DNA of 64,000 nucleotides from Dehalococcoidia bacterium (GCA_034431195.1 DAOUDP010000001.1:179385-243384), one strand, 5' to 3'. Shown: positions 2,478-53,300, numbered from the stretch's first letter. Translations and numbers: made by a program. The notes: generated by a model not told the origin, from the letters alone.

Positions 2478-2555
2478 GCGTCCCTGTAGCTCAATTGGAT
2501 AGAGCGGCTGCCTTCTAAGCAGCGGGTTGTGGGTTCGAGTCCCGCCAGGGACGCC
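2478..2555 (+). tRNA. tRNA-Arg (anticodon TCT)
   Basis: Cloverleaf with acceptor stem GCGTCCC/GGGACGC, D-arm TAGCTCAATTGGATAGAGC, anticodon loop CTTCTAA, T-arm GGGTTCGAGTCCC. Confidence 0.85.
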
Positions 2556-14956: not shown

Positions 14957-15547
14957 CTAACCCTCAATAACCTCTTTAGTGCTGGGCACTCTGCCAATAA
15001 TTCGCTCGTCGATGCGGGTGGCTGAATCCAGGGCTTGGGCGAGGGCTTTGAACAGGGCTTCGGCTTTGTGATGGTCGTTTACGCCGATAATTACCCTGGC
15101 GTGTAGGTTGACTTTGGCTTCAGCAGCAAAGGAAACCAGAAAGTGGCGGACCAAATCCGAAGATAGCTCGTCTATACTGACATCGGAAAACGAAACCTCA
15201 ACCACGCTGTAAGCCCTTCCCCCGATATCCACCGCCACCATAGCCCGAGTTTCGTCCATGGGAACGACGGCGTGCGCCATTCGGACAATACCCTCCTTCT
15301 GCCCTAATGCCTGGTTAAACGCTTTGCCTAAAGAGATAGCTACATCTTCAACCACATGATGCTGGTCAGCACCTGTGGCTGAGATTTTGAGGTCAAATAT
15401 CCCATGCCTGGCCAGTTGGGTAAGAAGGTGGTCAAACATCCTTATTCCAGTGGTGACCTCAAATTCTCCAATGCCATCAATATTCAGTTCCACCCTGACA
15501 TTTGTCTCGGCAGTTTCCCGGGTTACCTTTGCTTTCCTTTCAGCCAT
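14957..15547 (-). CDS. hisB: imidazoleglycerol-phosphate dehydratase
   Basis: RETAETNVRVELNIDG...DHHKAEALFKALAQAL; 196 aa, typical of HisB. Confidence 0.9.
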   Translation of the reverse strand: MAERKAKVTRETAETNVRVELNIDGIGEFEVTTGIRMFDHLLTQLARHGIFDLKISATGADQHHVVEDVAISLGKAFNQALGQKEGIVRMAHAVVPMDETRAMVAVDIGGRAYSVVEVSFSDVSIDELSSDLVRHFLVSFAAEAKVNLHARVIIGVNDHHKAEALFKALAQALDSATRIDERIIGRVPSTKEVIEG

Positions 15548-15678: not shown

Positions 15679-16755
15679 TTAACATATTTCCTTCAATGCC
15701 TTAATTAGGGCATCGTTATCTTCAGGCTTGCCCACACTTATTCGCAGATAATCTTTCAATCGTGGTGTATCAAAATAGCGAATAAAGATGCCTCGCTGCC
15801 GCAATTGACGCCAAATTTTCTCAGTATTTCGCTGGAGCATTGCGCAAAGGATAAAGTTAGCTTCTGATGGATAGGGCTTTAGCCATCCCAGCTCTTTTAG
15901 TTTAGTGAACAGCCTCTCCCGCTCAGTGGTTATCTTTTGAACATTACCACGAAGGTAGTCTATATCGCCTAAAGAAGCCAATACTGCCACCTCGGCGGCA
16001 ATGTTAACATTATAGGGCTGCTTGATTTTCATCATGTAGTCAGCAATTTCCACGGGGAAGACCCCATAACCTATCCGAAATCCAGCTAACCCCGCCCATT
16101 TGCTGAAGGTGCGCAGGACTATTAAGTTACGGTGAGCAGGCACCAAGCTAGCCATGGTTACCCCGTGGAACTCAAAGTAAGCCTCGTCAATGACCACGAT
16201 CCTCCCAGTATCAACGAGCTCCATTAGCTCTTGCTCCTCAATGACGTTCCCGGTGGGATTATTAGGAGAAGCGATAAAGATGACCTTCGTTCTCCCATCC
16301 AGCGCTCCTTTTATGCCCGTTATGTCCAGAGCAAAATCCTCATCCTTTCTAGGCACATCAATTATCTTGCCGCCACAAATCTCTGCGCTGAAGGGATACA
16401 TACCAAACGTCGGTGAGCAGTTAACAATTTTGTCACCCGGCTCAATAACAAGCCTCAAGACGAGGTCAATGAGCTCATCGCTGCCACTGCCACAAACGAT
16501 GTGCTGGCAAGCTATACCGGTATATTCCTCCAGTGCTTCCTTCAATTTCCTTTGCCCCGGGTCGGGGTAGATATGATAATGAGAATAGTCAGCCAGGGCC
16601 TGATAAACTCTCGGAGAGCAACCATAGGGATTCTCATTGCCATCGAGTTTTACCACCTTCCCCCGAACCCGCTGCTCCAGAATCTCCACAGGCTCTATCG
16701 GAGTGTAGCTCTTCATTGCTACCAGTTCAGGTCTCACCAGCTTGTTTATGTTCAT
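15679..16755 (-). CDS. hisC: histidinol-phosphate aminotransferase
   Basis: KLDGNENPYG motif; class II aminotransferase length; lies in the his operon. Confidence 0.9.
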   Translation of the reverse strand: MNINKLVRPELVAMKSYTPIEPVEILEQRVRGKVVKLDGNENPYGCSPRVYQALADYSHYHIYPDPGQRKLKEALEEYTGIACQHIVCGSGSDELIDLVLRLVIEPGDKIVNCSPTFGMYPFSAEICGGKIIDVPRKDEDFALDITGIKGALDGRTKVIFIASPNNPTGNVIEEQELMELVDTGRIVVIDEAYFEFHGVTMASLVPAHRNLIVLRTFSKWAGLAGFRIGYGVFPVEIADYMMKIKQPYNVNIAAEVAVLASLGDIDYLRGNVQKITTERERLFTKLKELGWLKPYPSEANFILCAMLQRNTEKIWRQLRQRGIFIRYFDTPRLKDYLRISVGKPEDNDALIKALKEIC

Positions 16756-18048
16756 CTATCTTTTGAGATTACTTCGCTTTGCTCGCAATGACACTGCCTG
16801 GGCGTGAGCATTAAACCCTTCAGCCTCAGCTATGGTTATCGCTGGTTGAGAAAGTTCCCTGGCGGTGGAATCATCCAGGGAAATGATATTGGTGACTTTG
16901 AGGAAATCCTCAACACCGAGGGGCGAACTGAAACGAGCGCTTCCCCCGGTAGGCAATACATGGCTGGGACCGGCAACATAATCGCCAAAAACTACTGATG
17001 AATTATCACCAACGAAAATAGAGCCGGCATTGTAGATTCTGGGAATCAAAGAAGAAGCGTCGGAGACCATAAGGGAAAGATGCTCAGGAGCATAAAGGTT
17101 GACCAATTCAACAGCCTGATCAATATCATCCACAAGGACAATCATCCCACTATCAAGGACTTCAGCGACAATAAAAGACCGCTTCAGCTTATCCAATTTG
17201 AGGGAAATTTCTTCATCAACCTTGTCAGCCAGCTCAGGGAATGTGGTAATCAAAAACACTTTTGCCAGCGGGTCATGCTCAGCCTGAGCGAGAAGCTCAG
17301 CAGCACATAGAGATGCATCGGCAGTGCTGTCAGCCACAATCACAATCTCGCTTGGTCCCTGAAGGCCATCAACGCCTACCTCGCCATAAACCACCATTTT
17401 GGCCAGCATCACAAAAATGTTGCCCGGACCGCAGATTTTATCCACCTTGGGCACTGACTCCGTGCCAAACGCTAGAGCAGCGATAGCTTGAGCACCACCA
17501 ATCTTGAAAATTCGATTTACCTGAGCGATGTTAGCCGCTACCAACGTAGCAGCAGGAATAGCTCCAGTAGGTCGGGGAGGCGAAGCCATAATGATCTGCC
17601 CAACACCAGCCACCTTAGCAGGAATGGCAGTCATCAACACCGTGGAGGGATAACAGGCAGTCCCACCAGGAGTATAGATCCCCACCTTATTCAGCGGCCG
17701 AACTTGTCTTCCCAAACATGGATCAATAGATATAACGCCAGCTTTTGGTAAGCAAGCAAGGTGGAATTCTCTTATCCTCTCAGCAGCTAACTCGAGGGCT
17801 GAGATTAACTTCTTGTCCGCGGCATCATAAGCTGCCGAAATCTCCTGCTGGCTCACCTCCAGAGAATCAAGTTGAGCATCCTCTAATTCCTTAGCGTAGC
17901 GAAAAAGAGCTTTATCACCCTTACTTCGTACCTTGCCGATAATATTTGCCACTACCTGTTGCTGCTCCAGCGCTACATCCAAGGATTTTAGTGGGTCTTT
18001 TCTATCAAGCACTTGCTTTGCTTGGTCAAAACCTTTGATTCTCTTCAC
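16756..18048 (-). CDS. hisD: histidinol dehydrogenase
   Basis: 430 aa with HisD-like sequence throughout; his-operon context. Confidence 0.9.
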   Translation of the reverse strand: MKRIKGFDQAKQVLDRKDPLKSLDVALEQQQVVANIIGKVRSKGDKALFRYAKELEDAQLDSLEVSQQEISAAYDAADKKLISALELAAERIREFHLACLPKAGVISIDPCLGRQVRPLNKVGIYTPGGTACYPSTVLMTAIPAKVAGVGQIIMASPPRPTGAIPAATLVAANIAQVNRIFKIGGAQAIAALAFGTESVPKVDKICGPGNIFVMLAKMVVYGEVGVDGLQGPSEIVIVADSTADASLCAAELLAQAEHDPLAKVFLITTFPELADKVDEEISLKLDKLKRSFIVAEVLDSGMIVLVDDIDQAVELVNLYAPEHLSLMVSDASSLIPRIYNAGSIFVGDNSSVVFGDYVAGPSHVLPTGGSARFSSPLGVEDFLKVTNIISLDDSTARELSQPAITIAEAEGFNAHAQAVSLRAKRSNLKR

Positions 18049-19472
18049 GCTAATCCTCCTCGCATCATCTGAATGAGGAAATCTATTTCTTCCTTCCTAT
18101 CAGGTGAAACAATACTTTCCTTGTTGCCAATGAGGCAAGCAGTGGATTCGCAAAGGGTATCAATAATTTTGAGATTATGCTCCGCCATGGTTCTTCCAGT
18201 TTGCGTGTTATCAATAAGCAAATCGGCATCTTCAGGCAGAAAAGCCTCGCTTGTCCCCCAGGTTAGTATTAGTTTGTATGGACTAACGTGGTGGTCACAA
18301 AGATACTTATCGCTGATATTGACATACTCCGAGGCTACCCTCAGCATGGATAATTTGCCCTTCTGCAGCAATTGTTTAACCTCTTCTATGGTTGATACTG
18401 GCATTTCCTGACTCGTCGCAGCTACGACTTTAACTTTGCCGAAGCCAAGATCCAATAATTCCACCACAGGGCTGGAGGGGAAACGGTAGACATGATCAAG
18501 TAGCCAGTCCCTGCCGGTTATCGCAAGGTCGAAATTGCCGTTGGCTACCTGGAGTGGCATATCCTGAGGCCTGATTACCTTAATATCAAGCCAATCTAGG
18601 TCAACCGAAGGATGATAATCCAGCGCCTCCACAGAATAATGGCTTAAATTGAGTCCAACTCGCTTTAAAAGCTGTGTCGTGGGTGGTAGCTGATGCCCAT
18701 CAGGCAAAGCTAGCCTGACTTTCTTCAGCTCGGGGCGGGGAAGTGACTCAATAGAACCTTCCTTTCTGCCTAATTCCTCAAATGACAAAGAAAACTCCTT
18801 ATTGTCAAGCTTGGAAGCAAAGCAATTCAACACTTCGCCCAAGTCCTTACTATTCAAATTTTTCTGGCTCGCAATTATCATAGCTTTAGTGGGGAGCAAT
18901 TTCATGAGAGGAAGCAAACCTTTCCTTTCCAACTGTCTCCTATTTCTGGCTCCCAATATCGCGATTTCAGCGTTCTCCGGGGGATAGACCTCAGCATCTC
19001 CCCAAACTGGAAAAATCCGAAACCTTCTCATCCTGACACTTAAGGCAAAAGCTTCGGCTAAATTAGGATATTCACTTACTATACGCCAGTTACGTTGCCT
19101 GGCTAGAAATTCATCGAGGTTGGATATTCCTGACTTGTAACTGACTGCGGCGTATACATATCCGCCACCATAATTTAGAGCAGATATCTTCACCACTGCG
19201 CTGGCTTTATACCGCACAAGAAGTTCTTCAATCCAATCCAGTCCACATATCCCCAAGTCATAATTGCCTATCGCCACCTGAATAGGAATATCCTTTTCCC
19301 GAAATATCTTGGCAGCGAGGTAAGGGAGGTTTCTTGACTGAAGCCGATATTGCCTTGTTCGTTCCGTATACCCTTTAAAGCCTAAACCTACATCAGCAAG
19401 TAAATTCGCCGTGGCTGGAAGCAATCTCCCTTTGGGCAAAGCAAGTTTAATATAGTTTGCCTGGTTTGCCAT
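18045..19472 (-). CDS. hisG: ATP phosphoribosyltransferase, tandem fusion of two short-form HisG catalytic domains
   Basis: 475 aa. The first half (KLALPKGRLLPATANLLADVGL...GNYDLGICGLDWIEE) and second half (RLALPDGHQLPPTTQLLKRVGL...GNFDLAITGRDWLLD) each resemble a complete short HisG. Confidence 0.8.
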   Translation of the reverse strand: MANQANYIKLALPKGRLLPATANLLADVGLGFKGYTERTRQYRLQSRNLPYLAAKIFREKDIPIQVAIGNYDLGICGLDWIEELLVRYKASAVVKISALNYGGGYVYAAVSYKSGISNLDEFLARQRNWRIVSEYPNLAEAFALSVRMRRFRIFPVWGDAEVYPPENAEIAILGARNRRQLERKGLLPLMKLLPTKAMIIASQKNLNSKDLGEVLNCFASKLDNKEFSLSFEELGRKEGSIESLPRPELKKVRLALPDGHQLPPTTQLLKRVGLNLSHYSVEALDYHPSVDLDWLDIKVIRPQDMPLQVANGNFDLAITGRDWLLDHVYRFPSSPVVELLDLGFGKVKVVAATSQEMPVSTIEEVKQLLQKGKLSMLRVASEYVNISDKYLCDHHVSPYKLILTWGTSEAFLPEDADLLIDNTQTGRTMAEHNLKIIDTLCESTACLIGNKESIVSPDRKEEIDFLIQMMRGGLA

Positions 19473-19478
19473 AGAAAT

Positions 19479-20720
19479 CTAATCTACACCACCTAACATA
19501 CCAGCAACCTGAGTCAAAGAGCTGACCTCCCGTTTCTCTCCGCTCTTGCGGTCAATAATGACAAAAGAGCCTTCACCAAGAACAGAAACAACCCATCGGT
19601 AATCCGCCGCTCTCCCTCCGGCCAAGTCAAGCTCAACTATATGCCCCGTGTTACGAAGCAATTGAGCCAAGCTAAAGCATGCCTCCATCACTCCTGGGGT
19701 TCTTCCACCTGCTTTAACTAACACCCCAGACTCACTACGCTCATCTTCCTTCAAGGAGAGCATCTTTATCACCGGCTCAACATAAATGGCAAATCCACAA
19801 GCTGGCATGTTCTTGCTGCCCATCAGCGATAGGAGCTCATCATACCTCCCACCACCACCAATTTTTTCGCCCCGGTAGAACAATTGAAGGCAAACTCCAG
19901 TGTAATACTCAAAGCCATGTATGGCAGCAATATCAATCCAATAATCACATTTCAAGTCATCCAACAACCTGACAATGTCGGTGAAATCACTAAGATTGGA
20001 TTTTAGCCCCGCCGAAGCTTGTGATGCTGGAAGTTCAACTTTCTTGAGGAAGTCGCTTAATTTCCCTTTAAAGTTCACCACAGAGGCAAGAAACCTATCC
20101 ACCTCAAGGTTATTTGATTTTACCTTCCTCCATGCCTGCCAATCACCATCCAAAATACGACCGAGCATTCCAGCTTCGTCTTTGGGGCTAAGTCCAAGTT
20201 CCTTAACCAGTGCCTTCGCCAAACCAGCGTGGGACAGCCGCAACTCCACCTCGCCAATACCGAGATTATGTAATAGCTCACGGGCTAACAACATCAGCTC
20301 TACATCTGCCATTGGACTAGCACCACCCAAGAACTCGACACCACATTGCCACCGCTCCCTGTTTTCCTTCCCCGTCTGCTCGAAAGCAAAGATGTCAGTG
20401 ACATAGAAAAGCCTGGCATCCTGCTGCTGGCTTAGATTTTCGATATAAAGTCTGGCTATAGGTATAGTGCCATCCGGTCTGAGCACCACCCTTTCTCCAC
20501 TCCACCCATCCCAATCAAGAAAGGAATATGCCTTGCCCAATTTGCTAGGAGTGAGTGTTCCTGTAGCGGTAAATAGGTGGAGATATTCCAAGCTTGGTGT
20601 CCTTACTTCTCGGTACCCCCACTTAACACAGCAATTGCGGAAGGTATCCTCAATATAGCGAAATCGTCGCATATCATCGGGGAGTAAATCCCTCATGCCT
20701 TTACAGCGCTGGCTTTCCAT
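19479..20720 (-). CDS. hisZ: HisRS paralog, likely ATP phosphoribosyltransferase regulatory subunit HisZ; a genuine HisS is not excluded
   Basis: Class II aaRS-like sequence (GMRDLLPDD...LRPDGTIPIARLY...GGGRYDEL) with a partly degenerate motif 2 (FAFEQTGKENRERWQ); retains a C-terminal anticodon-binding-like domain; sits at the head of the his operon next to short-form-type HisG. Confidence 0.55.
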   Translation of the reverse strand: MESQRCKGMRDLLPDDMRRFRYIEDTFRNCCVKWGYREVRTPSLEYLHLFTATGTLTPSKLGKAYSFLDWDGWSGERVVLRPDGTIPIARLYIENLSQQQDARLFYVTDIFAFEQTGKENRERWQCGVEFLGGASPMADVELMLLARELLHNLGIGEVELRLSHAGLAKALVKELGLSPKDEAGMLGRILDGDWQAWRKVKSNNLEVDRFLASVVNFKGKLSDFLKKVELPASQASAGLKSNLSDFTDIVRLLDDLKCDYWIDIAAIHGFEYYTGVCLQLFYRGEKIGGGGRYDELLSLMGSKNMPACGFAIYVEPVIKMLSLKEDERSESGVLVKAGGRTPGVMEACFSLAQLLRNTGHIVELDLAGGRAADYRWVVSVLGEGSFVIIDRKSGEKREVSSLTQVAGMLGGVD

Positions 20721-20776
20721 CCCAAAAACCTATATTACCCAGTTTGCCTCATTCTATACTACCCCCTCATCTTGCT

Positions 20777-21706
20777 TCAATGAGGAAGCATCTCCAGGAC
20801 TTGCTTTAATTCCTCAGGCAAAGGAGCGCTAAATTCAAGGTATTGATTGGTTGACGGCGAACAGAAACCAAGCCGCTGAGCATGAATGAATTGCCGACCA
20901 AGATAAGCTAATTTCACACCGTAAACGGGGTCACCAACCACAGGATAACCAATAGTGGCAAGGTGCACCCTTATTTGGTGTGTCCGCCCTGTTTTGGGCA
21001 TCACCTCGAGTAGAGTATAATCACCAAAATATCGGTTAACCTGGTAATGTGTTATTGCCTCCCTCCCTCCTTCCACTATCGCCATCCGCTTGCGATTTCT
21101 CGGGTCTCGCCCAATAGGCAACTCGATTGTCCCCCGACCAGGAAATACCCTCCCGTTAACCAGAACGAGGTAACTCTTGGTTACTGTTTTACCTTTGAAC
21201 TGGTTAATCAGAGAAACTCGAGCGGATTCATTTTTAGCAACAACGATGAGCCCTGAAGTATCTTTATCCAGCCTATGGACTATACCTGGTCGCACCAAGC
21301 CACCACTCCCTTCCAAACCGGGACAATGCGCCAGAATAGCATTAACTAAAGTATGGTCGGGATGCCATGGAGCTGGGTGAATGGTTAAGCCAGCAGGTTT
21401 ATCCACCACAATAATCTCGTTGTCTTCATAAATTATATTCAGAGGAATTGATTCAGCTTTCGGGAGAGTAGGCAAGGGAGGAAATTCAATGGTTATTCTG
21501 TCTTCTCCAGCCAATTTCCGACTCGCCTTAGCCTGCCGTTGATTAACTAAAATATAGCCTTGCTCAATTAATTTCTGTAAGTAAGCTCGAGAAAATTGAG
21601 GAAATGTCTTAGCTAAATAACTATCGAGGCGAATCCCCGATGTGGGAACAGTGAGATGAAGCATTTTAGCCTTTGGAAGTGCGTCCATGGTGATATACCC
21701 TGGCAA
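20777..21706 (-). CDS. rluD: RluA-family 23S rRNA pseudouridine synthase (RluD-like)
   Basis: S4-like N-terminus followed by HRLDKDTSGLIVVAKN catalytic motif. Confidence 0.85.
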   Translation of the reverse strand: MPGYITMDALPKAKMLHLTVPTSGIRLDSYLAKTFPQFSRAYLQKLIEQGYILVNQRQAKASRKLAGEDRITIEFPPLPTLPKAESIPLNIIYEDNEIIVVDKPAGLTIHPAPWHPDHTLVNAILAHCPGLEGSGGLVRPGIVHRLDKDTSGLIVVAKNESARVSLINQFKGKTVTKSYLVLVNGRVFPGRGTIELPIGRDPRNRKRMAIVEGGREAITHYQVNRYFGDYTLLEVMPKTGRTHQIRVHLATIGYPVVGDPVYGVKLAYLGRQFIHAQRLGFCSPSTNQYLEFSAPLPEELKQVLEMLPH

Positions 21707-22169
21707 ATAATTCTATACGATAAAGGGAATAAATGAATAAAAGGATGCCAGCCACTATAGCAGCATCCGCGAAATTAAATGCTGGCCAGTGGAAATTGTT
21801 CCAGAGCCGAAGATCAACGAAATCAACGACATAGCCGAAACGAAAGCGATCTATCAAATTACCGGTGGCGCCACCAAAAAGCAAACCAAGCGATACATTG
21901 CTTAAAGCAGCCTTAGATAATAAGTAATGTCGCACCAACAAAATGATAATTAAGACTGCTATAGTGGTAGCGATAAGAAGGGAAACCTGTCCCGGCAGCA
22001 AGCCAAAAATGGAGCCAGTGTTCTCACGATATACTAAATTCAGGAAACTTTCTCCAGAGGGCGGCAATAAGGCTGAATTGCTCCTCACCCATAGCTTAGT
22101 CAGTTGGTCGAGGGCGATTATTGAAGCAGCAGCAACCAAAAACAGCTTAAGTTGCCCTTTATCTTGCAT
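21666..22169 (-). CDS. lspA: lipoprotein signal peptidase II
   Basis: DQLTKLWV...NTGSIFG...GGATGNLIDR...VVDFVD...FNFADAAI motifs; overlaps the rluD start, as in lspA-rluD operons. Confidence 0.85.
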   Translation of the reverse strand: MQDKGQLKLFLVAAASIIALDQLTKLWVRSNSALLPPSGESFLNLVYRENTGSIFGLLPGQVSLLIATTIAVLIIILLVRHYLLSKAALSNVSLGLLFGGATGNLIDRFRFGYVVDFVDLRLWNNFHWPAFNFADAAIVAGILLFIYSLYRIELFARVYHHGRTSKG

Positions 22170-22524
22170 CCCTCGTCTGGCGCGCTTTGCAGCTCAAGCA
22201 CAAGTTTGCTTGAGGCAACGCTTCAAGACGGGCTGGCTCTATGGGCTTGCCACAAGAGTCACATAATCCATAAGTCCCTGCGTCATACTTCTCCAAGACA
22301 TGGTCTATTTCAGCAAGAGATTTCTTCAACCTCTTCTCCAAATCCAGCCTCTTTTCTAACTCCAAGACCTGGCTTGCCTCCTCCCCTCTTTTGCCAAACG
22401 GACCGCCAGCCCTTCTTTCCAATTCTTGTTGGAAACTCTGCATCTGTTCGAGCTCCTGTAACAATCGCTTTCTTTCAGCTTTCAACCGTTTCAAAAGTTC
22501 ACTAAATTCAGCCACTTTGTCCAC
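22159..22524 (-). CDS. DksA/TraR-family C4 zinc-finger protein
   Basis: Coiled-coil N-terminus plus CDSCGKPIEPARLEALPQANLCLSC zinc finger. Confidence 0.7.
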   Translation of the reverse strand: MDKVAEFSELLKRLKAERKRLLQELEQMQSFQQELERRAGGPFGKRGEEASQVLELEKRLDLEKRLKKSLAEIDHVLEKYDAGTYGLCDSCGKPIEPARLEALPQANLCLSCKARQTRDAR

Positions 22525-51354: not shown

Positions 51355-51579
51355 ATTACACCCGCCCTATCAAATATTCGGGACACTCTACCTTGAACTC
51401 CAGAGTTTGTCAATCAAGCTGTATCTGTTCATAATGTAACCAACACGTGTGACCGAAATCACGATTCCCTTGCGCATGTTATAGCTATCTTTAACTTTGT
51501 CCAGTCAACCTCTCTTGACAAAGGGTGGGCTTGCTACATAAAATATAATAGAACTGAATAAGTGAAAGGCTGCGAACAG

Positions 51580-51835
51580 GACTAGTACAGTCTGAGGCGG
51601 AGTTTAGAGAGTCGGGTAAGGTGTAAGCCGATACTTGCGCAAGACTGGAATGGACCTGGGAGCTGCAAACCGAAAGGCTACAAGGCTGAGTAGGCTTTGT
51701 CGGTAGGGCACCGTTAGAAGCCCAGGGTATCGCTCTCAAGTTGAGCTGTATCCGAGAAGAGATAGTCGTAAGACTGAAATGGGGTGGCACCGCGAAGGTT
51801 AGGCCTCTCGCCCCCTGGCGAGAGGCCTTTTTATT
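51580..51835 (+). promoter_or_regulatory. T-box riboswitch leader (Trp-specific) upstream of trpB2
   Basis: Conserved T-box sequence AAATGGGGTGGCACCGCG at 51777-51794; UGG codons in the putative specifier region (ACUGGAAUGGA); followed by an intrinsic terminator. Confidence 0.7.
51801..51835 (+). terminator. Rho-independent terminator of the T-box leader
   Basis: AGGCCTCTCGCC-CCCT-GGCGAGAGGCCT followed by TTTTATT. Confidence 0.75.
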
Positions 51836-51938: not shown

Positions 51939-53300
51939 ATGGAAAGAACAAAATTCACCCTTGATGAAACAGAAATCCCTACTCATTGGTACAACATCCA
52001 GGCTGACTTGCCCAAGCCACTGCCACCGGTTCTGCACCCAGGTACTGGAAATCCAGTCACTCCTGACGATTTAGCACCCCTATTTCCCATGGAGCTGATC
52101 AAGCAAGAGGTGAGCACTGAGCGGTGGATTGAAATACCCGAGGAGGTGCGCGATGTATACCAGCTATGGAGACCGACAACGCTATTTCGGGCGCATAGAT
52201 TGGAGAAGGCTCTGGATACGCCGGCAAAGATTTTCTACAAATATGAAGGGACAAGCCCTCCCGGCAGCCATAAGCCAAATACCGCCGTAGCCCAGGCATA
52301 TTACAACAAGCAGGAAGGGATAAAGCGCATCAGCACCGAGACTGGAGCAGGGCAGTGGGGAAGTGCCCTATCCTTTGGTGGCGCCTGCTTCGGCGTTGAG
52401 ATCAAGGTCTATATGGTGAGGATTAGCTATGATCAAAAGCCTTACCGCAGAATAATGATGGAGACCTGGGGGGCGAAATGCGTGCCCAGCCCGAGTGAGG
52501 ATACCAAGGTAGGGCGAGATATGCTGGCAAAATGGCCTGATTGTCCCGGCAGCCTGGGTCTTGCCATTAGCGAGGCTGTGGAGGATTGTGTGACCCATGA
52601 TGACACTCACTACGCCCTGGGCAGCGTGCTCAACCATGTTCTGCTGCATCAAACTGTGAACGGCCTGGAGGCGAAAAAGCTGATGGAGAAGGCAGATGCC
52701 TACCCCGACATCATCGTCGGCTGCATTGGTGGAGGCTCAAACTTCGCCGGGCTATTTTTGCCCTTTGTCAAAGATAAAATTGATGGTACAAAGCCAGACC
52801 TGCGTGTCATCAATGTAGAGCCCATGTCTGCTCCCAGCGTTACCAAGGGACTATATACCTATGACTTTGGCGATTCAGCCCAGCTCACCCCCTTGATTAA
52901 GATGTATACCCTGGGACATAGCTTCATTCCACCCCCGATTCACGCTGGTGGACTGCGCTATCACGGGATGGCACCCATAATTTGCCATCTCCATCAATTA
53001 GGGCTTGTTGAAGCCAGGGCTGAGCACCAGCTTGCCACCTTCGAAGCGGGGGTGACCTTCGCCCGCACCGAGGGCATCATCAGTGCTCCAGAGCCATGCC
53101 ATAATATTAAGGTTGCCATTGACGAAGCCTTGAAATGTCGCGAGTCAGGCGAGTTAAAAACCATCCTGATAGCCCACAGCGGACATGGACATGTTGACAT
53201 GGCTGCCTATGATGCTTACTTTTCGGGCAAGCTCCAGGATTATGAGTATCCCGAGGATAAAGTAAAGGAGGCGCTGGCTGAGCTACCAAAGGTAGGCTAA
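51939..53300 (+). CDS. trpB: tryptophan synthase beta chain-like, TrpB2 family
   Basis: PLP-lysine motif GSHKPN; 453-aa long-form TrpB2-type length; downstream of a Trp T-box. Confidence 0.8.

Follow-up and report, generated by a model that had tools for sequence, protein, structure and literature searches.

The window (the whole 64-kb stretch of DNA that was analysed) carries a run of his genes on the minus strand, in which a hisZ-like gene lies 6 nt upstream of a long hisG that is followed by hisD, hisC and hisB. The product of hisG, ATP phosphoribosyltransferase (ATP-PRT), is the enzyme that opens the histidine pathway. The features used below are the following, with residues numbered in the hisG product and compared with the HisGS enzymes of P. 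arcticus (Pa) and A. baumannii (Ab).

19479..20720, minus strand: hisZ-like gene for a HisRS paralog of 413 aa, the predicted regulatory subunit (PF13393, 188 bits)
18045..19472, minus strand: hisG, 475 aa, fusion of an N-type (predicted non-catalytic) and a C-type (predicted catalytic) HisG; a continuous ORF with two HisG stretches and full-length orthologs
18819..19454, minus strand: N-type HisG domain (aa 7-218), which has the HisG fold and keeps the predicted trans-acting Arg but has lost the PRPP loop
19353..19355, minus strand: codon of R40, equivalent to Pa Arg56 and Ab Arg53 (gapless alignment to both HisGS)
18933..18968, minus strand: degenerate remnant of the PRPP loop in the N-half (aa 169-180, EIAILGARNRRQ), without the canonical D..D...TGxT residues and variable across the family
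18726..18818, minus strand: linker (aa 219-249) of low conservation and variable length, where confidence in the model is lowest
18063..18725, minus strand: C-type HisG domain (aa 250-470), predicted catalytic unit
18693..18701, minus strand: D258-G259-H260 in place of the canonical K-G-R, with Pa Arg32 replaced by His (H in 96% of C-type sequences)
18570..18572, minus strand: R301, equivalent to Pa Arg73 and Ab Arg70 (R in 100% of C-type sequences)
18189..18224, minus strand: PRPP-binding loop in the C-half (aa 417-428, DLLIDNTQTGRT), where C-type sequences have T at 0.96, G at 1.00 and T at 0.85
16756..18048, minus strand: hisD, histidinol dehydrogenase, which begins with GTG and has a 4-nt overlap with the hisG stop
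15679..16755, minus strand: hisC, histidinol-phosphate aminotransferase
14957..15547, minus strand: hisB, imidazoleglycerol-phosphate dehydratase

In a profile search, the 475-aa protein shows two PF01634/TIGR00070 HisG stretches and scores 233 bits against TIGR00070 (cut-off 75.75). Each half also matches HisG separately. Against PF01634 (Pfam cut-off 25.5), the N-half alone reaches 72 bits (E 5e-20) and the C-half alone 127 bits (E 8e-37), which bears out the preliminary description of two HisG domains in one chain next to a HisZ paralog. Aligned with each other over 214 residues, the two halves share 30% identity (E 1e-36). The Pfam search gave PF01634 only, with no HisG_C (PF08029) regulatory domain in the protein, and there is no second hisG within the 64-kb window. 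An AlphaFold2 model made with 110 diverse sequences as input is compact and confident (pLDDT 90.8, pTM 0.88), while 32 close homologs gave only pLDDT 57.8 and pTM 0.37. As far as the model goes, a pTM of 0.88 is too high for two freely oriented halves. All of its matches among PDB folds are HisG chains (TM 0.85-0.89 per half), and the HisG fold of the second half is upheld by both profile search and structure prediction.

Although both halves belong to the same family, they differ in the residues that matter for substrate binding. For this comparison Pa Arg32, Arg56, Arg73, Cys115 and Asp179 were mapped from the canonical enzyme. In the C-half, the loop pattern D-x3-D/E-x3-T-G-x-T is satisfied: D417, D421, T425, G426 and T428 are present and conserved. 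C-type sequences also have E409 at 1.00 and D or E at the position of Ab D173. R301 corresponds to the Arg (Pa Arg73, Ab Arg70) that forms a salt bridge to the ATP gamma-phosphate (PMC10795190). The ALPKGRL block, initially reported in both halves, is not found in the second, which reads ALPDGHQ. PaHisGS R32A loses less than 4-fold in kcat with HisZ present (PMC9734150), and PDGH is also found in two long-form HisG proteins (P0187 and P0204). Because of these two observations, the DGH of the C-half appears compatible with catalysis. The equivalent of Pa Cys115 is Val, the Arg equivalent to Pa Arg56 is not conserved in C-type sequences, and the best PDB sequence match of the C-half is 2VD3 (62 bits).

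The N-half shows the opposite pattern. It lacks D173, T177, G178, T180 and N184 (Ab numbering) in a region that is variable and carries indels across the family. The T, G, T and N of the canonical loop occur in 0-8% of N-type sequences, the loss covers exactly block Ab 159-195, and the family alignment shows no new conserved motif in place of the lost loop. The position of the ATP gamma-phosphate Arg (58) is variable as well (Q in 33%). Judged from its sequence, the N-type is probably incapable of catalysing the ATP-PRT reaction. The earlier picture of two complete short-form catalytic units thus gives way to one of anciently differentiated paralogs, one of them with a degenerate site. What the N-type does keep is the Arg at the R40 position, present in 97% of N-type versus 82% of canonical sequences. 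In P. arcticus HisGS, the equivalent Arg56 reaches the partner subunit's active site across the dimer interface, and R56A lowers kcat 42-fold without HisZ (PMC9734150). Many strongly conserved residues are also kept in the N-domain cleft (D61, Q65, N70-Y71-D72, E134-Y135, R147 and Y163-P164-P165-E166). In the N-half of the window's subfamily, K14-G15-R16 hardly varies, without an obvious role; across the wider N-type family, both KGR and position 58 vary. Purifying selection acts on each of the halves (dN/dS of 0.14-0.23 for the N-half and 0.11-0.18 for the C-half).

The fusion layout is conserved across uncultured Dehalococcoidia. A relative of the fusion protein is encoded in 546 stretches of species-representative genomes, and the 80 loci that were kept, from different MAGs, all belong to Dehalococcoidia/Chloroflexota. 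In each of the 80, the match runs over essentially the full length of the protein (a contig end truncates one), and the order hisZ-hisG-hisD-hisC-hisB is the same in them as far as the contigs reach. The duplicated architecture was thus found in relatives, where it is the rule; it is unusual, as had been proposed, relative to characterised enzymes but not within its own clade. For the locus labelled 'Dehalococcoides mccartyi' (L067), there are no cultured-strain names among the 120 nearest relatives, and the closest other cluster is 77% identical. That an assembly error or frameshift created the fusion, a concern raised at the outset, can be set aside almost with certainty. The ORF is continuous, four independent assemblies (L001-L004) contain orthologs with 93-98% identity, the layout recurs in 80 loci and the best 120 database matches are all 446-513 aa. 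Such artefacts do exist among database 'fusions' in the family. P0202, considered as a Rosetta-stone fusion of HisZ and HisG_N, proved to be a frameshift artefact with an Arg-rich out-of-frame stretch on a 2.33x contig, and P0175 is similarly corrupted.

In other lineages, the same N-type and C-type pair occurs as adjacent separate genes, in the order hisZ-hisG_N-hisG_C, in independent assemblies (L082-L085, L087/L088, L089 from 'Candidatus Tectomicrobia' and L090 from Dehalococcoidia). Like the fusion, these split operons carry N-type and C-type paralogs, with signatures that match those in the window, and a HisZ that also has the LDWDGWSGERVVLRPD motif; L090 also shares the downstream hisD-hisC-hisB with the window, and its hisD ortholog matches PF00815. 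Unlike the fusion, they encode separate polypeptides of 213-244 aa with no linker and usually with overlapping stop/start codons. Across the loci examined, the N-type is always fused to or adjacent to a C-type. In the tree, the N-type clade is recovered in 100/100 bootstraps and the C-type clade in 74/100, each clade mixes fused with split forms, and a sister-group relation of the two clades is unsupported (39/100). A plausible origin is a duplication, then complementary loss that made the heterodimer obligatory, with fusion afterwards fixing the 1:1 pairing.

The gene upstream fits the role of a partner. Every related locus (of the 80) that holds this flank has hisZ immediately upstream of hisG, and the PDB matches of the window's HisZ-like protein are HisRS and HisZ chains. 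Its scores fall below the NCBIfam cut-offs both for hisZ (TIGR00443, 202.6 versus 271.65 bits) and for hisS (215.1 versus 286.75 bits). The aminoacylation residues of HisRS include the motif 2 Arg, the Arg of the RGLDYY motif and the motif 3 Arg. All three are lost here in the alignment with the true HisRS of L087 and L089, where WRGER becomes FAFEQ, ARGLDYY becomes IHGFEYY and GL(T/E)R becomes YVEP. The partly degenerate motif 2 noticed in the preliminary description, consistent with HisZ, is thus borne out by the degenerate class II motifs seen here. Its anticodon-binding-like C-terminus stands in part: the last ~90 aa align with the domain of true HisRS, but Pfam gives no HGTP_anticodon match. 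Nor does such a domain make a HisZ of this length (~400 aa) unusual: solved HisZ chains have 388-400 aa. There is no true hisS within the 64-kb window; in the split operons of L087 and L089, a true hisS with HGTP_anticodon adjoins the hisZ ortholog.

Taken as a whole, we favour (with a probability of roughly 0.7) a covalent heterodimer that works with HisZ and has a single composite active site in each chain. The C-terminal domain would bind PRPP and ATP and do the chemistry. The N-terminal domain, a non-catalytic HisG, would pack on it like the second HisGS subunit and supply R40 in trans to its site. Canonical HisGS forms a head-to-tail dimer with an active site on either side of its crevice (PMC10795190). 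Here the reciprocal site would be dead both ways, with no PRPP loop in the N-cleft and no matching Arg in the C-domain, so that a single composite site per chain would be left. The adjacent HisZ paralog would activate the enzyme and mediate histidine feedback, and the assembly would be a (HisGG)2(HisZ)4 analogue of the known hetero-octamer. We infer the dimer geometry, the trans role of R40, the dependence on HisZ and the stoichiometry. Some observations count against the composite site. A purely structural partner would not obviously need the conserved residues of the N-cleft, the near-invariant K14-G15-R16 of the window's subfamily also speaks against it, and C-type sequences outside that subfamily mostly carry R-R two to three residues past the trans-Arg column, where, judging by the alignment, a register-shifted basic residue may be possible.

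The conserved cleft is an argument for seeing the N-type as a repurposed ligand-binding regulatory module (e.g. for a nucleotide, PRPP, PPi or histidine), its dead cleft serving as an allosteric site beyond HisZ control. The cleft residues are invariant or nearly so despite the lost loop, the N-half dN/dS is low enough to be read the same way, and so is the subfamily's K14-G15-R16. On the other hand, no new conserved motif replaces the loop, KGR and position 58 drift across the wider family, and folding, packing against the C-half or contacts with HisZ could account for the conserved residues. We regard such a module as unlikely, and it can coexist with the trans-Arg role. Somewhat less likely still is that the N-type acts as scaffold only, keeping the dimer and HisZ contacts with no catalytic share and conserving R40 for structural reasons. 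HisZ does contact HisGS ~20 A from the active site (PMC9734150), and the octamer may require a dimeric platform. Yet the trans-Arg is kept in the N-type and lost in the C-type, and the PRPP loop is lost only in the N-type. This is the specific pattern to be expected of a composite site, and a structural role predicts no such asymmetry. Two complete active sites per chain are very improbable: each half exceeds the PF01634 cut-off and the N-half keeps E161 and the GNYDLG block, but the N-half is without its loop residues in a variable region, its gamma-phosphate Arg is not conserved in the N-type, and the C-half is without the trans-Arg that an N-half site would need.

The proposed composite-site enzyme is best viewed against the two ATP-PRT architectures described in the literature consulted, namely the long form, a homohexamer, and the short form, in which HisGS homodimers bind HisZ. 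In the known short-form enzymes (P. arcticus 5M8H, A. baumannii 8OY0, L. lactis 1Z7M and T. maritima 1USY), HisGS joins a HisZ tetramer in a hetero-octamer that is inhibited by histidine and in which HisZ acts as activator. The window's protein resembles them in its HisG fold without HisG_C, its adjacent HisRS paralog, the PRPP loop and gamma-phosphate Arg of its C-half and the Arg56-aligned Arg of its N-half. In the short form, however, the homodimer consists of identical HisGS, and each of its two active sites receives from the opposite subunit an Arg (Pa Arg56) that completes it. Here two non-identical units (30% identity) lie in one chain, the substrate-binding signature is confined to one of them, His replaces the cis Arg (Pa Arg32) and the Pa Cys115 equivalent is Val. 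Long-form HisGL (e.g. M. thermautotrophicus 2VD3) is a homohexamer with a C-terminal regulatory domain. The window's enzyme, without HisG_C, is presumably regulated through HisZ, although its C-half shares PDGH with the long-form P0187 and P0204. A more distant parallel is AdoMetDC and its 'prozyme' in trypanosomatids, a heterodimer of an enzyme and a dead paralog without substrate-binding residues. The two cases are alike in that an enzyme was duplicated and a degenerate copy kept under purifying selection beside the active one. They differ in fold and pathway, which are unrelated, and in that the dead copy is, here, predicted to activate the live one.

We found no description of a HisG duplication, fusion, paralog or pseudoenzyme in the searchable literature, and the reviews of his gene fusions and operons that were checked do not mention a hisG duplication. 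The window's enzyme is accordingly a variant of short-form ATP-PRT for which no earlier description was found in that literature. A bolder proposal, which we put forward tentatively and with low confidence, is a third ATP-PRT architecture: an asymmetric, obligatory pairing of a dead N-type with a live C-type HisG, whether fused or split, on HisZ, with half the usual active sites and the dead cleft repurposed as an extra allosteric site, reached by duplication, complementary loss and a fusion that locked in the heteromer. If true, it would offer a clean natural case of that sequence of events. A good deal of recent work on allostery centres on the Arg that crosses the HisGS dimer interface. With the substrate site in one unit only and the trans-Arg in the other only, the composite-site enzyme would be a natural asymmetric counterpart of the in vitro mutants. 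It would permit tests of the trans-Arg mechanism, of the need for both active sites and of HisZ activation through a dead subunit. The finding also adds a hisG event to the gene duplications and fusions of the his pathway. It bears on annotation too, as hundreds of Dehalococcoidia proteins, together with stand-alone N-type genes, are labelled just 'ATP phosphoribosyltransferase'.

The his genes are tightly packed on the minus strand of the window, as follows:

14957-15547, minus strand, hisB
15679-16755, minus strand, hisC
16756-18048, minus strand, hisD, with a GTG start overlapping the hisG stop
18045-19472, minus strand, hisG (475 aa), six bases downstream of the HisRS-like gene
19479-20720, minus strand, HisRS-like gene (hisZ, 413 aa)
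20777-21706, minus strand, RluD-type pseudouridine synthase gene, leaving a 56-nt gap before hisZ
21666-22169, minus strand, lspA, upstream of the RluD-type gene
22159-22524, minus strand, DksA/TraR zinc-finger gene, upstream of lspA

The last three genes may be co-transcribed with the his cluster. Searched with Rfam, the region upstream of hisZ (20721-22524) gave neither a his leader nor a riboswitch, and hisS is absent within the 64-kb window.

The 475-aa protein consists of two HisG stretches (Pfam and NCBIfam), and it lacks HisG_C, the regulatory domain of long-form HisG. Scanned singly, the N-half (aa 7-218) scores 72 bits and the C-half (aa 250-470) 127 bits against PF01634 (cut-off 25.5 bits), and the halves are 30% identical to each other over 214 residues (E 1e-36). 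The duplication seen in the preliminary description is real. Both halves are maintained: comparison of the window hisG with five close orthologs gives dN/dS of 0.14-0.23 in the N-half and 0.11-0.18 in the C-half.

An artificial fusion is ruled out. The best 120 matches in a collection of 5.8 billion proteins are all 446-513 aa long and cover the full query at 58-98% identity. Relatives are encoded in 546 stretches (one genome per GTDB species). Of these, 80 loci were kept, and every one has Dehalococcoidia, Dehalococcoidales or Chloroflexota as its label. In all of them the match runs over practically the full protein, one being truncated where its contig stops, and the order hisZ-hisG-hisD-hisC-hisB is preserved as far as each contig extends. 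The fusion is not rare within its clade, and full-length fused proteins extend down to 35% identity (HMMER, 1.84 billion cluster representatives).

The cluster-representative search also returned stand-alone proteins matching only the N-half (213-233 aa) or only the C-half (237-253 aa). These are encoded side by side in split loci:

L082-L085 (four contigs, different samples): hisZ(397)-hisG_N(229)-hisG_C(244)
L087, L088 (two independent assemblies): hisS-hisZ-hisG_N(225)-hisG_C(229)
L089 ('Candidatus Tectomicrobia' MAG): hisZ-hisG_N-hisG_C-hisS
L090 (Dehalococcoidia MAG): hisZ-hisG_N-hisG_C-hisD-hisC-hisB

Split genes usually overlap by 4-11 nt, except for a 118-nt spacer in L089, and their products, which have no linker, show the type-specific signatures of the fused forms. 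Profile typing cleanly tells the two types apart. Neighbour-joining of 91 sequences recovers the N-type as a clade in 100/100 bootstraps and the C-type in 74/100; a closest relationship between the two is unsupported (39/100). Each clade has fused and split members interleaved, a pattern implying that fusion or fission occurred several times. A further locus, L091, keeps the order hisZ, hisG_N, second hisG and then hisD-hisC-hisB despite a frameshift; its apparent 637-aa HisZ-HisG fusion (P0202, 4001-5914) is an artefact of that frameshift on a low-coverage (2.33x) long-read contig from a high-GC organism.

The preliminary description had taken both halves for complete catalytic units. This needs correction in the light of a three-way comparison anchored on A. 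baumannii HisGS (Ab), the short-form catalytic subunit, whose sequence was taken from PDB alignments.

Residue frequencies in 28 canonical, 27 C-type and 36 N-type HisG sequences (Pa, P. arcticus HisGS)
PRPP loop T177-G178-x-T180 (Ab): canonical 0.86/0.89/0.89; C-type 0.96/1.00/0.85; N-type 0.08/0.08/0.00
Acidic D169 + D173 (Ab): canonical D 0.96/D 0.86; C-type D 0.89/E 0.81; N-type E 0.47/L 0.44
GxxE-motif Glu E160 (Ab): canonical 1.00; C-type 1.00; N-type 0.78
ATP gamma-phosphate residue R70 (Ab)/R73 (Pa): canonical K 0.57; C-type R 1.00; N-type variable (Q 0.33)
Trans-acting Arg R53 (Ab)/R56 (Pa): canonical R 0.82; C-type not conserved; N-type R 0.97
Cis Arg of KGR, R29 (Ab)/R32 (Pa): canonical R 0.54; C-type H 0.96 (DGH); N-type R 0.47

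The window C-half has D417, D421, T425, G426 and T428 in the PRPP-loop region, the GxxE Glu E409, and R301 as the equivalent of Pa Arg73, the ATP gamma-phosphate residue (PMC10795190). In the N-type, canonical residues are gone across the entire block Ab 159-195; the stretch replacing the loop, EIAILGARNRRQ in the window, differs between family members in both sequence and length. The window N-half keeps R40, aligned gap-free to the trans-acting Arg. In the P. arcticus holoenzyme this residue (Arg56) spans the dimer interface and touches the PRPP pyrophosphate in the partner subunit's site, and R56A causes a 42-fold activity loss (PMC9734150). Since, of the two types, only the C-type has the PRPP loop and only the N-type conserves the trans-acting Arg, the surviving elements make up exactly one predicted composite site, formed by the C-half cleft together with the Arg of the N-half; the reciprocal site has lost both of its contributions. 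The predicted catalytic half has His where Pa has Arg32, a position at which R32A lowers kcat <4-fold when HisZ is bound (PMC9734150). PDGH also replaces the usual KGR in two otherwise ordinary long-form proteins (HisG + HisG_C; P0187, P0204), so this change is not confined to the two-paralog system.

AlphaFold2 gave pLDDT 57.8 for the chain with a shallow alignment, and pLDDT 90.8 and pTM 0.88 with 110 sequences, among them remote relatives of both the fused and the split form; uncertainty in this second model is limited to the linker (about residues 230-250). In a chain of two equal modules, such a pTM means that the packing of the halves is confidently modelled. Foldseek against the PDB returned HisG chains only, and each spans a single half (TM 0.85-0.89 when normalised to target length and about 0.40 to query length). 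We infer that the halves pack head to tail, in the manner of the HisGS dimer of 8OY0 (PMC10795190).

The HisRS-like protein matches the HisRS core PF13393 and scores under the curated thresholds for hisS and for hisZ. We aligned it with true HisRS genes adjoining orthologous operons. The partly degenerate motif 2 noted earlier is borne out (FAFEQ in place of WRGER), His stands for the arginine of RGLDYY and Pro for that of motif 3, and LRPDGT, Q..G.E, EYYTG and GGGRYD are preserved. From what is established for HisRS, such a pattern fits a protein still able to bind histidine and unable to aminoacylate, as in HisZ, the predicted regulatory subunit. As previously suggested, an anticodon-binding domain, in shortened form, can be aligned to its C-terminal ~90 residues, although Pfam does not detect it; solved HisZ chains are 388-400 aa long, so that a C-terminal domain is not unusual. 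This HisZ lineage is nearer in sequence to HisRS than to most solved HisZ. A true hisS with HGTP_anticodon directly adjoins hisZ-hisG_N-hisG_C in L087 (2065-3426) and L089 (1993-3303), a linkage that may bear on the lineage's origin. The motif YSFLDWDGWSGERVVLRPDGT is common to HisZ of N/C HisG pairs (window 19479-20720; L082, L087, L090) and missing from the true HisRS of L087 and L089 in the same alignment; it could mark the pair system.

The window enzyme is a variant of a known system, a predicted dead and live HisG paralog pair, here fused. It most likely represents a covalent heterodimer with one predicted active site per chain. The N-half would serve as second subunit, donating R40 to the C-half site, and HisZ would activate the fused HisG and mediate feedback. 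HisG may have been duplicated, one copy losing the PRPP loop and the other, under relaxed constraint, its now-useless trans-acting Arg, before fusion enforced 1:1 pairing. The heterodimer does not explain why many N-half cleft residues are strongly conserved, with KGR conserved in the window's own subfamily; this conservation leaves room for a less likely reading, in which the dead N-half site would bind a regulatory ligand.

The fused enzyme would work like, and belongs with, the short-form ATP phosphoribosyltransferases, but departs from one of their defining features, the homodimer in which identical catalytic subunits provide two equivalent sites. The literature searched yielded nothing on HisG duplication, fusion, paralogs or pseudoenzymes, and two reviews of his-gene fusions and operons mention no hisG duplication or fusion. 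The fused pair is therefore provisionally undescribed, as subscription journals lay outside the search. Public records label the fused proteins simply 'ATP phosphoribosyltransferase'.

Among other features, P0227 (682 aa) joins HisG and HisG_C to a class I/II aminotransferase domain in one polypeptide and may be a hisG-hisC fusion. The window also carries:

2480-2553, plus strand, a tRNA gene (69 bits to Rfam RF00005)
51563-51818, plus strand, T-box leader (RF00230, 102 bits, over the gathering score)
51939-53300, plus strand, 453-aa PLP-dependent enzyme (PF00291, PALP), not an aminoacyl-tRNA synthetase, downstream of the T-box leader
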